DNA of 64,000 nucleotides from the NCBI RefSeq assembly GCF_024502345.1, contig NZ_JALDNN010000001.1; one strand, given 5' to 3'. The notes beneath the pieces are model-generated. The model had not been told where the DNA came from and did not search any database. It was given only the letters and a program-made list of their open reading frames with translations. The position numbers were made by a program, and so were the translations under genes. Positions 33,348-41,120 of this stretch are shown one piece after another. Position 1 is the first letter of the stretch. The number at the start of each line of letters is the position of its first letter. This DNA comes from Escherichia coli (GTDB lineage: Bacteria; Pseudomonadota; Gammaproteobacteria; Enterobacterales; Enterobacteriaceae).

Positions 33348-33550
33348 ACGCCAGATTGCCCGATGCGCTGCGCTTATCGGGCCTACCTGGTTCGTGCGAC
33401 ACTAGGCCCGATAAGGCATTCATCACGCCGCATCCGGCGCGGTTACTAACTGATGCCAAACGCCAAATTGCCCGATACGCTACGCTTATCGGGCCTACCT
33501 GGTTCGTGCGACATGTAGGCCGGATAAGGCGTTCACGCCGCATCCGGCAT
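33348..33550. repeat. REP/BIME-type palindromic repeat array (two tandem ~100-bp units)
   Basis: Two near-identical units each containing GCCGCATCCGGC / CTTATCGGGCCTAC REP-like palindromes between hycI and ascB. Confidence 0.85.
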
Positions 33551-33556
33551 GGTTAC

Positions 33557-34981
33557 TTACTCTAAATCTTCACCATTACTGGCAATCACTTTTTTATACC
33601 ACCAGAACGATTTCTTACGCGTACGCGTCAGCGTACCGTTTCCTGCGTCGTCACGGTCTACGTAGACAAAACCGTAGCGTTTGCTCATTTCACCCGTAGA
33701 GGCGGAAACTAAATCAATACAGCCCCAGGTGGTGTAGCCCATCAGCGGAATGCCGTCTGCAATCGCTTCGCCCATTGCGCGGATATGTTCGCGTAAATAG
33801 CTGATGCGATAGTCGTCGTTAATCTCGCCACTGGCAGCAAATTCATCTTTTGCGCCCAGGCCGTTTTCCACCAGAAACAGCGGCTTCTGATAGCGGTCGT
33901 ACATCATGTTCATGGTTATACGCAGACCGAGTGGATCAATTCCCCAGCCCCAGTCGCTTACCTGTAGATACGGGTTACGCAGCGATTTCACCACGTTCGC
34001 CGCACTGCTGTTGTTGGCGTTCATCTCCGCCGAGGCGCAGCGCGAGGCGTAATAGCTGAAAGAGACAAAATCGACGGTGTTTTTCAGGATTTCATCATCG
34101 CCCGGTGCTTTGTCGATGGTTACCCCTTTTTCGCGGAATACGCGGGCAGAGTAAGCCGGATACGTGCCCCGCGCCTGCACATCGATAAAAAACAGGTTTT
34201 CCCGGTCTTTCTCCAGCGCCGCCCAGACATCTTCCGGCTTGCAACTGTAAGGGTAGAAGTTACCGCCCGCCAGCATACAGCCCACCTGATTTTGCGGGTT
34301 AACCTCATGGGCGATTTTGGTGGCTAGCGCACTGGCAACCAGCTGGTGATGCGCGGCCTGATATTTCACCTGATCCTGATTTTCACCTTCTTCAAACACC
34401 AGACCCGCGCCGGAGAACGGGCTATGCAACATAATGTTGATTTCATTGAAGGTAAGCCAGTATTTCACCAGACCATCAAATGCTTCAAAGCAGGTCCGGG
34501 CGTAGCGGCTGAAAAACTCCACCAGCTTGCGGTTACGCCAGGAGCCATATTCGGTGACCAGATGCATCGGCACATCGAAGTGGCACAACGTGACCAGCGG
34601 TTCGATACCGTACTTTTTACACTCTTCAAAGACAGAACGATAAAAAGCAATGCCCTGCTGGTTGGGCGTCAGTTCATCGCCCTGCGGAAAGAGACGGCTC
34701 CAGGCAATTGACGTACGGAACACTTTGAATCCCATCTCTGCCATCAGGGCGATATCTTCTTTATAACGATGATAAAAATCCGTCGCCTCATGGCTGGGAT
34801 AAAACTCGTCATCGCGCAACTGAAAACGTTTTTCCAGTCCCAGTTTCACCGCCATTCGATGCTCGCCGTGCGGGATCATATCGACCGTGGTCAGCCCTTT
34901 GCCGCCTTCACGGAACGCACCTTCAGACTGGTTGGCGGCAAGCGCGCCGCCCCATAAAAAACCTTGCGGAAATACTGACAT
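33557..34981 (-). CDS. ascB: 6-phospho-beta-glucosidase AscB (GH1)
   Basis: Starts [16 protein letters not shown]...; GH1 motifs LTFNEINI and LVENGLG. Confidence 0.95.
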
Positions 34982-34989
34982 TTTCATCC

Positions 34990-38393: not shown

Positions 38394-38545
38394 AAATCTT
38401 ACAGAACTGTTCTGGCATCAAAGGAATTCCCGGAAATATTCGTAGAATACGGAGCGGGCGGTATCGCCGACCTGTGACTGCCGGATGCGACGCTGTCGTG
38501 TCCGGCTGGACGGGTTACGCAATTCATGATGGCGGGAATAACTCA

Positions 38546-40798
38546 ATGGCAAAAAACACATCTTGCGGTGTCCAACTGCGTATTCGTGGCAAAGTGCAGG
38601 GCGTCGGTTTTCGTCCGTTTGTCTGGCAGCTGGCACAGCAATTAAATCTTCACGGCGATGTCTGTAATGACGGCGATGGCGTAGAAGTCCGGCTGCGGGA
38701 AGACCCGGAAACGTTTCTTGTTCAATTGCATCAGCACTGCCCGCCGCTGGCGCGTATTGATAGCGTCGAGCGTGAGCCGTACATCTGGTCACAACTGCCC
38801 ACTGAGTTCACCATCCGCCAGAGCGCGGGAGGTGCCATGAATACGCAAATTGTTCCCGATGCCGCTACTTGCCCTGCTTGCCTTGCCGAAATGAATACCC
38901 CAGGCGAGCGGCGTTATCGTTATCCGTTTATCAACTGTACCCACTGCGGCCCGCGTTTCACCATTATTCGCGCCATGCCTTACGACCGCCCGTTTACCGT
39001 AATGGCGGCGTTTCCGCTGTGTCCAGCCTGTGATAAAGAGTACCGCGACCCGCTCGATCGTCGCTTCCACGCCCAGCCGGTGGCCTGCCCGGAGTGTGGC
39101 CCACATCTTGAATGGGTAAGTCATGGTGAACATGCGGAACAAGAGGCGGCATTACAGGCGGCTATCGCACAGTTAAAAATGGGCAACATTGTCGCCATCA
39201 AAGGGATTGGCGGATTTCATCTTGCCTGCGATGCACGTAACAGTAACGCGGTGGCGACACTTCGGGCGCGCAAACATCGCCCGGCGAAACCGCTGGCGGT
39301 CATGTTGCCAGTGGCTGACGGTTTACCAGACGCTGCGCGCCAGTTGCTTACCACGCCCGCTGCGCCGATTGTGCTGGTGGATAAAAAATACGTACCTGAG
39401 CTTTGTGATGATATCGCCCCTGGCCTTAACGAAGTCGGAGTGATGTTGCCTGCGAACCCGCTCCAGCATTTGCTGTTACAGGAACTGCAATGCCCTCTGG
39501 TGATGACCTCCGGCAACCTGAGCGGTAAACCACCGGCTATCAGCAACGAACAGGCGCTGGCGGATTTGCAGGGCATTGCCGACGGATTCTTGATACATAA
39601 CCGCGACATCGTGCAGCGGATGGATGATTCGGTGGTGCGCGAAAGCGGCGAAATGCTGCGCCGTTCGCGGGGGTATGTGCCGGATGCGCTGGCTTTGCCT
39701 CCGGGCTTTAAAAATGTTCCGCCTGTGCTGTGTCTCGGCGCGGATCTGAAAAATACCTTCTGCCTGGTGCGCGGTGAACAAGCGGTGTTGAGCCAGCATC
39801 TGGGCGATTTAAGTGACGATGGCATCCAGATGCAGTGGCGCGAAGCGTTACGCCTGATGCAAAACATCTACGATTTCACCCCGCAATACGTTGTGCATGA
39901 CGCGCATCCGGGCTATGTCTCCAGCCAGTGGGCGCGCGAAATGAATCTGCCGACACAAACGGTGCTTCATCATCATGCTCATGCGGCGGCGTGTCTGGCA
40001 GAGCATCAGTGGCCGCTGGATGGCGGTGATGTCATTGCGTTGACGCTCGACGGTATCGGTATGGGGGAGAACGGCGCTTTGTGGGGCGGCGAGTGCCTGC
40101 GGGTGAACTATCGCGAATGCCAGCACCTGGGCGGCTTGCCTGCAGTGGCGCTTCCGGGTGGCGATTTGGCGGCGAAGCAGCCGTGGCGAAACCTGCTGGC
40201 GCAGTGCCTGCGCTTTGTGCCGGAGTGGCAGAATTACTCTGAAACGGCAAGTGTGCAACAGCAAAACTGGAGCGTGCTGGCGCGGGCTATTGAGCGTGGA
40301 ATTAACGCGCCGCTGGCGTCATCGTGTGGGCGTTTGTTCGATGCTGTGGCGGCGGGACTGGGCTGTGCGCCAGCCACGTTAAGTTATGAAGGTGAAGCGG
40401 CTTGTGCTCTGGAGGCGCTCGCAGCCTCATGTGACGGAGTGACGCATCCGGTGACGATACCGCTGGTGGACAATCAACTGGATCTCGCCACTTTCTGGCA
40501 GCAGTGGCTGAACTGGCAGGCTTCGGTTAATCAACGCGCGTGGGCGTTTCATGATGCGCTGGCGCAGGGTTTTGCCGCGTTGATGCGTGAGCAGGCCACG
40601 ATGCGTGGTATCACTACGCTGGTATTTAGCGGCGGGGTTATTCATAACCGTTTGCTGCGTGCACGTCTGGCGCATTATCTCGCTGATTTCACATTGCTCT
40701 TTCCACAGAGTTTACCGGCGGGTGATGGCGGTTTGTCTTTGGGGCAGGGGGTTATTGCTGCGGCGCGTTGGTTAGCGGGTGAAGTCCAGAACGGATAA
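38546..40798 (+). CDS. hypF: carbamoyltransferase HypF (hydrogenase maturation)
   Basis: Starts [27 protein letters not shown] (acylphosphatase domain), two zinc-finger CxxC pairs, YrdC and Kae1-like domains. Confidence 0.93.
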
Positions 40799-40814
40799 AA
40801 CGTGTTGCATCTGA

Positions 40815-41120
40815 ACACCATTATTGCCGGATGCGGCATAAACGCCTTATCCGGCCTACACATGCGTCCCCGTAGGTCGGATAAGACGCGCCAGCGTCGC
40901 ATCCGACATTTTGGGCACAGTAGCTGTATGTGACATGAACGCATTATGTGACCAACACATGCGCTCCCCGTAGGTCGGATAAGACGCGTCAGCGTCGCAT
41001 CCGACATTTTGGGCACAGTAGCTGTATGTGACATGAACGCATTATGTGACCAACACATGCGCTCCCCCGTAGGTCGGATAAGACGCGCCAGCGTCGCATC
41101 CGACATTTTAGGCACAGTAG
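40815..41120. repeat. REP/BIME array: one REP followed by ~2.6 tandem copies of a ~98-bp unit
   Basis: Repeated CCCCGTAGGTCGGATAAGACGCGCCAGCGTCGCATCCGACATTTTGGGCACAGTAGCTGTATGTGACATGAACGCATTATGTGACCAACACATGCG units starting near 40861, 40958 and 41056. Confidence 0.85.

Follow-up and report, generated by a model that had tools for sequence, protein, structure and literature searches.

What are the two clusters of palindromic repeats that lie at either end of the asc-hydN-hypF genes of Escherichia coli, and does their pairing carry any meaning? The question comes from a stretch of 64,000 nucleotides of an E. coli chromosome (contig NZ_JALDNN010000001.1, the window below), in which a preliminary description had placed multi-copy arrays of repetitive extragenic palindromic (REP) sequences in both the hycI-ascB and the hypF-norW spacers; a repeat search and Tandem Repeats Finder locate them there, at about the coordinates proposed. 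The answer, which I hold with near certainty, is that both clusters are E. coli REP arrays organised as bacterial interspersed mosaic elements (BIMEs), with roles drawn from the literature on the family. Judged by their y, z1 and z2 matches, orientation and location, they belong to an already known repeat family and add nothing new in kind, and the two arrays are independent of one another rather than copies.

The identification is carried by sequence, folding and arrangement together. Against the y, z1 and z2 REP sequences as quoted in Durrant et al. 2024 (PMC11208160), the intact REPs agree at 34/35 positions for y (two copies), 32-33/37 for z1 (three copies) and 26/30 for z2 (two copies), and all seven fold as single-stranded DNA into hairpins of -9.0 to -12.7 kcal/mol (z -3.0 to -5.7) that carry an internal mismatch. 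The GTAG/CTAC foot is present in 7/7 of these and reads CTAG or CAAC in the degenerate elements (the chimeric y and the pseudo-y copies, respectively, both listed below), and the whole spacers fold beyond shuffled sequence on both strands (z -3.2 to -7.7). A query made from the hycI-ascB REPs finds a median of at least 38 places per complete E. coli genome, as a dispersed family should. The published matches, the footed hairpins and the alternating orientation of the REPs thus bear out the REP/BIME identity that had been proposed from the letters alone.

The setting is equally well defined. Open reading frame (ORF) positions, read together with the annotation that RefSeq gives for FDAARGOS_943, the closest complete genome, place the window in the hyc–asc–hydN–hypF–norVW region of the E. 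coli chromosome, with hycG, hycH and hycI on the + strand (hycI ending at 33287), ascB (33557-34993) and ascF on the - strand, ascG, hydN and hypF on the + strand (hypF ending at 40798), norW (41126-42259) and norV on the - strand, norR on the + strand, and then gutQ and the srl genes. This order agrees with the names hycI, ascB, hydN, hypF and norW given earlier and supplies ascF and ascG as well. Both spacers lie between convergent genes, hycI facing ascB and hypF facing norW, and the first REP lies 70 nt from the stop codon of hycI, 8 nt from that of ascB, 27 nt from that of hypF and 21 nt from that of norW. Neither spacer holds an annotated coding sequence in RefSeq (nearest genome), a family in an Rfam scan, a promoter-like site in a promoter scan or an intrinsic-terminator-like site in a terminator scan. 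Over 33000-41400 the window shares 99.6% identity with FDAARGOS_943 and FDAARGOS_944, no more than 97.8% with any other complete E. coli genome and 97% with Escherichia sp. E1V33; because only the first two reach 99.6%, the window must come from a sparsely sampled Escherichia lineage. At least 80% of this 8.4-kb stretch is present in 86% of complete E. coli genomes.

REPs combine into BIMEs of recognised classes: BIME-1 pairs z1 with y across a long L linker, frequently with a site for integration host factor (IHF), and occurs as a single copy; BIME-2 pairs z2 with y across a short linker and is found in tandem in multiple copies; and atypical BIMEs are multi-copy chimeras that combine components from both BIME-1 and BIME-2 (Ton-Hoang et al., 2012; PMC3333891). 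The elements of the two spacers, assigned to these classes for reasons given below, are as follows.

40826..41121, whole atypical BIME array of three 98-bp units (Tandem Repeats Finder and repeat search)
40826..40859, + strand, intact y REP, the first element, 34/35 to published y, hairpin -9.3 kcal/mol
40872..40907, - strand, z1 REP copy 1, 33/37 to published z1, hairpin -12.7 kcal/mol, z -5.7
40923..40956, + strand, pseudo-y of unit 2, a decayed y that matches the y region of unit 1 at 74% and y at 23/35
40970..41005, - strand, z1 REP copy 2, sequence match to z1
41021..41054, + strand, pseudo-y of unit 3, a decayed y that matches the y region of unit 1 at 74% and y at 23/35
41069..41104, - strand, z1 REP copy 3, which on the norW transcript begins 21 nt past the stop codon (41126-41128)
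33336..33447, BIME-2 unit A, 112 bp, delimited by direct-repeat families at a spacing of 110-112 bp
33358..33386, + strand, z2-type REP of unit A, GCCCGATGCGCTGCGCTTATCGGGCCTAC, 26/30 to published z2
33402..33439, - strand, degenerate chimeric y REP of unit A, 31/35 to y
33448..33559, BIME-2 unit B, reaching over the ascB stop codon (33557-33559)
33470..33498, + strand, z2-type REP of unit B, 26/30 to published z2
33515..33548, - strand, canonical y REP of unit B, 34/35 to published y and 34/34 to the y consensus

The hypF-norW array consists of 2.9 tandem 98-bp units (40826-41121), reported by Tandem Repeats Finder as 40837-41121 with a period of 98, 2.9 copies, 94% matches and a score of 498. 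It opens 27 nt beyond the hypF stop codon with the intact y, followed by a 12-nt linker (ACATGCGTCCCC) and an inverted z1, and about 15 nt further on the pattern recurs twice. The 98-nt units at 40867-40964 and 40965-41062, counted here as units 2 and 3, are 99% identical, and the window contains three occurrences of a 26-nt unit-specific motif for which shuffles give an expectation of 0.00. The three z1 copies match published z1 at 33/37, 32/37 and 33/37 positions, and the differences of copy 1 include paired changes in the two stem arms (GTCGGAT...ATCCGAC versus GCCTGAT...ATCAGGC). The inner y copies have decayed: they read GCNGGATGCGACATGAACGCATTATGTGACCAAC and variants of it, the palindrome is gone, and DNA folding finds no hairpin (z +0.7 for the copy in unit 2).

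The hycI-ascB array (33336-33559) is built differently, as two tandem units at a spacing of 110-112 bp that are 90-92% alike, with one pair of direct repeats of 66 nt (33336-33401 and 33448-33513, 92%) and another of 29 nt (33423-33451 and 33533-33561, 90%). Each unit carries a z2 REP on the + strand, a linker of 15-16 nt (CTGGTTCGTGCGACA) and an inverted y REP. In unit B the y begins 8 nt past the ascB stop on the ascB transcript and forms a hairpin of -12.1 kcal/mol (z -4.5). In unit A the z2 REP folds, as DNA, at -9.3 kcal/mol (z -3.2), and its y partner has CTAG in place of the CTAC foot, a 3-nt insertion and a linker-side arm that makes a 13-nt perfect inverted repeat with the neighbouring z2 arm (33373-33385 with 33403-33415); DNA folding does not form a y-type hairpin there, the arm being now complementary to the adjacent z2, so that the element has lost its own hairpin. 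The "near-identical ~100-bp units" of the preliminary description therefore hold for units 2 and 3 of the hypF-norW array, at 99%, but not for the hycI-ascB units, at 90-92%, and the unit sizes are 98 and 112 bp, respectively.

Units A and B of the hycI-ascB array differ by about 8-10%, and their left flanks resemble different alleles, that of A the single-unit allele of O157 strains and that of B the K-12 allele. From this likeness it follows that the rare two-unit form may stem from unequal recombination between diverged alleles and not from a recent duplication in place.

Alternating z2 and y REPs, short linkers and tandem units make the hycI-ascB array a BIME-2 by the published definition (PMC3333891), and it further resembles BIME-2 arrays such as REP325 (yjdM-yjdN) in its convergent, 3' untranslated region (3'UTR) position and its strain-variable unit number. 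It departs from them in having just two units, one with a chimeric and degenerate y, and its z2 stems (GCCCGAT...ATCGGGC) differ from the reference (GCCTGAT...ATCAGGC). The hypF-norW array has the same REP types, y and z1, as BIME-1 (the RIP/RIB elements), but its 12-nt linker stands against the long L linker and its tandem layout against single-copy occurrence, and because it fails BIME-1 on these two features it is classed as an atypical BIME, in which BIME-1 components (y and z1) are joined to the BIME-2 traits of short linker and tandem multiplication. Even within that class it differs in that its inner y copies have no palindrome, leaving units 2 and 3 with one functional hairpin each (z1). 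Both arrays also invite comparison with the REPIN/RAYT system, in which the RAYT is TnpA_REP, the REP-associated Y1 transposase: the inverted REP pairs can fold into longer hairpins, and the intact REPs have the GTAG foot and stem mismatch needed for TnpA_REP binding, whereas mobilisation or amplification by TnpA_REP at either locus would be an inference only. The K-12 tnpA_REP gene (yafM) lies far from the hyc-asc-norVW region. Nothing contradicts the REP/BIME identification, which has two limits: three of the ten REP-like elements (two pseudo-y and one chimeric y) are degenerate and lack both the hairpin and the GTAG foot, and the hypF-norW array is neither a canonical BIME-1 nor a canonical BIME-2 and falls into a class, "atypical", that is a catch-all.

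BIME arrays would be expected to vary between strains, and the comparison of copy number that the preliminary description had suggested does reveal this typical polymorphism. The survey covered 5,426 complete E. coli genomes, and the frequencies given here and for the hycI-ascB spacer are estimates from sampled BLAST listings. The hypF-norW spacer occurs in these states:

77 bp, unrelated sequence without REP (0 units), as in FDAARGOS_1285
127 bp, one unit, as in the K-12-like strain g74
225 bp, two units, as in 08_4358
326-327 bp, three units, as in the window and FDAARGOS_943
419 bp, four units, as in ST866

Among 30 evenly spaced records, about 3 are without the REP array, 14 have one unit and 10 have two units. 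The hypF-norW query is at least 80% covered in 1,915 genomes, read as two units or more, and the full three-unit span appears in about 18 of the best 45 records. A megablast search with the 62-nt inner-unit junction finds the window-type junction in 89 genomes at a median of three places each, counts that hint at arrays reaching four or five units, and this search undercounts multi-unit arrays because its 28-nt seed misses variant pseudo-y copies. FDAARGOS_943 has three units and FDAARGOS_944 two, with both genomes 99.6% identical to the window, and between strains units are gained or lost as whole blocks without any new content in the "spacers". No description specific to the hypF-norW tandem repeat was found in the literature searched.

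The roughly 3 in 30 sampled genomes without the array carry an entirely different 77-bp spacer with a GC-rich hairpin (CCCCTCGCCCTTTGGGCGAGGG), and their hypF is 12 nt shorter. In FDAARGOS_1285 this spacer occupies positions 388-464 of its locus, equivalent to 40787-41125 of the window, and in that lineage both the spacer and the hypF 3' end seem to be replacements.

At the hycI-ascB locus the commonest state is a single unit in a 158-bp spacer, O157-type strains keep the z2 REP alone (123 bp), and the two-unit form of the window was seen, among the matches listed, in 3 genomes (FDAARGOS_943, FDAARGOS_944 and GF3-3). The locus also serves as an insertion site in other strains. The insertion sequence (IS) IS621 targets REPs, its natural target being ATCAGGCCTAC and its bridge-RNA target loop encoding ATCGGGCCTAC (PMC11208160; PMC1525189), and a target site was taken here to be either 11-nt sequence with its CT core (PMC11208160). 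Both z2 REPs of the window hold ATCGGGCCTAC exactly, at 33376-33386 and 33488-33498, which is two occurrences in the window compared with 0.01 expected. In the window these REPs are without an insertion, whereas in the O104:H4 strain FWSEC0009 an IS621 (1252-2644 of its locus) occupies the equivalent REP position, starting at the z2 REP's CT core, immediately behind ...CTTATCGGGCCT, a point equivalent to 33386 of the window. In several other strains, among them 2015C-4498 and YZLc1-3, a gene pair encoding HigB and a helix-turn-helix (HTH) protein, higBA-like, lies directly upstream of the z2 REP, where the window has hycI.

In FWSEC0009 the linker beyond the far side of IS621 appears inverted relative to the window. 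The higBA-like pair spans 68-795 of one such locus and 1-727 of another, equivalent to about 33290-33340 of the window.

The age of the hypF-norW array can be read from other Escherichia species. When a single genome from each species was scanned for exact matches, the unit-specific 26-mer turned up in E. albertii, E. whittamii and Escherichia sp. E1V33 alone, and E. albertii NBRC 107761 has a three-unit array in which the inner y is likewise decayed; the array, with its inner y already decayed, is common to both species and therefore older than the split between E. coli and E. albertii. The pseudo-y copies of the two species differ by eye at 4/47 nt and the flanking DNA is 92.5% identical, so that no special constraint is needed to explain their retention. 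The z1, z2 and outer y hairpins are intact across strains and in E. albertii, and only the inner y decays. The same E. albertii genome (5688-6680 of its locus) is without ascBFG, equivalent to 33595-37711 of the window, but both REP arrays (the BIME-2 included), hydN-hypF and the final ~38 nt of ascB are still there, which suggests a deletion; the ends of the gap lie within the 3' end of ascB and at the ascG-hydN boundary, which has no REP.

Between hycI and the BIME, E. albertii has about 750 bp of additional sequence with ORFs of 133 and 168 codons. A short GATGTGC-like direct repeat stands at the flanks of this segment, and the window has only the joined ends (around 33311-33330).

Now considering that palindromic repeats of 29-36 nt at regular spacing are also what a clustered regularly interspaced short palindromic repeat (CRISPR) array looks like, it had rightly been warned that these arrays could be mistaken for repeat-spacer arrays, and the superficial likeness is real. 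A CRISPR-like array, or its degenerate remnant, has nevertheless virtually no chance of being the explanation: the "spacers" are repeated along with the REPs, with 99% identity between entire 98-nt units; successive REPs switch both orientation and type (y/z1 and z2/y), whereas the repeats of a CRISPR array are identical and all direct; the family that the REPs match is dispersed at dozens of places per genome; and units come and go as whole blocks that bring no new "spacer" content. The long reading frames that run through the arrays (33292-33543 on the - strand, 33314-33565 on the + strand and 40675-41115 on the - strand, of 83-146 codons) might, together with published reports that REP arrays are transcribed, point to encoded proteins or to a dedicated small RNA, but these frames are built of REP repeats and their length shifts with unit number between strains, RefSeq annotates no coding sequence in either spacer of the nearest genome, and the spacers hold no promoter-like site and no Rfam family, all of which makes such products extremely improbable. 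Could the arrays instead be the paired boundaries of a mobile or horizontally acquired asc-hydN-hypF block, as the word "flanking" in the preliminary description would allow? An array does stand at each end of the block, insertion at the hycI-ascB array has been demonstrated in other strains (IS621 and higBA), and E. albertii NBRC 107761 is missing ascBFG. Yet an array-to-array comparison finds that the two share only the 35-nt y REP (94%, in opposite orientation) and short REP fragments, with different linkers and different remaining REP types, and because the arrays are unrelated beyond this one y REP their flanking position is without structural meaning. The loss in E. albertii, moreover, did not run from array to array (hydN-hypF and both arrays are in place), which argues against boundaries of a mobile block; the few loci examined include none that has lost or moved exactly the array-to-array segment and retained one hybrid array in its place; and the stretch is widely retained, in the 86% of complete genomes noted above. 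A mobile block is accordingly highly improbable.

A different challenge concerns function only and leaves the REP/BIME identity untouched, namely that the arrays are plain minisatellites maintained by replication slippage alone, with incidental REP content and no effect on the flanking genes. Copy number does differ between close relatives, the inner y has decayed without loss of the array, and pseudo-y divergence, comparable to that of the flanks, does not call for selection; but the persistence of intact z1, z2 and outer y hairpins across strains and into E. albertii, the lack of any other terminator in either spacer and the published effects of REPs on termination and decay at other loci all point the other way, and I consider this reading unlikely. 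At the opposite extreme, the pseudo-y, having been kept since before E. coli and E. albertii parted, might itself be a functional motif, for protein binding or RNA processing, and unit number a heritable dial on hypF and norVW expression, which I judge very unlikely. HypF acts in hydrogenase maturation and NorVW in nitric oxide detoxification, and if this idea were true, the tuning of flanking anaerobic-metabolism genes by unit number would be a small case in which regulation varies while promoter and coding sequence stay the same.

The likely roles of the two clusters, going by the family literature, are the protection of transcript 3' ends, termination, and service as a hot spot for recombination and insertion. 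The REPs would be transcribed at the 3' ends of four convergent units (hyc, asc, hydN-hypF and norVW), where their G+C-rich hairpins may shield upstream transcripts by blocking 3'-to-5' exonucleases and may act as partial, partly Rho-dependent, bidirectional terminators. REPs in 3'UTRs have been described as combined terminators and stabilisers, with about 60% lying between convergent genes, and their effects as context-dependent with no global link to longer half-lives (Harris et al., 2026 preprint; bioRxiv 10.64898/2026.03.23.713779). On the DNA, the same REPs could serve as binding sites for gyrase and DNA polymerase I (Pol I), as substrates for TnpA_REP and as targets of REP-specific IS elements, and unit number would shift through slippage, unequal recombination or TnpA_REP action, giving the strain polymorphism at both loci. 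BIMEs are known to bind IHF, Pol I and DNA gyrase and to vary in copy number by locus and strain, and TnpA_REP cleaves and recombines them in vitro (PMC3333891).

The position of the REPs relative to the stop codons may matter as well. REPs at most about 15 nt from a stop codon are reported, in work by Liang, Rudd and Deutscher (Mol Cell 2015), to be able to stall terminating ribosomes. Of the four genes, and speculatively, ascB alone (8 nt) would come under this rule of ~15 nt.

A scan by blastn-short, with REP consensus queries, located only one other REP in the 64 kb, a z2-like element at 47586-47610 (-) in the gutM-srlD spacer, which brings the REP loci of the window to three. This is a single palindromic unit, GCCTGATGCGCTACGCTCATCAGGC, inside the srl/gut operon. 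Further along, Rfam marks five tRNA genes clustered at 57700-58559 (+), four of them with identical scores, and the small RNA MicA at 61473-61544 (-), which is consistent with the serV-argVYZQ and luxS-gshA regions of K-12.

What does this mean for E. coli? The array at either end of asc-hydN-hypF was rightly seen, and that earlier reading is refined here by exact unit sizes, by assigning each array to a class, by the finding that the inner y has decayed and by showing the arrays to be independent. These are textbook E. coli REP/BIME elements with little import beyond their correct annotation, since a well-known kind of element is behaving here in a known way, and in genome annotation such arrays are best masked, lest they be called as CRISPR arrays or as spurious ORFs of 83-146 codons. 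Within these bounds, the 98-bp array of hypF-norW offers a clean marker of copy number, ranging from 0 to at least 4 units in complete genomes, IS621 and a higBA pair have landed recurrently at the hycI-ascB REP, and both loci could be put to use in typing strains or in studying how insertions target REPs.

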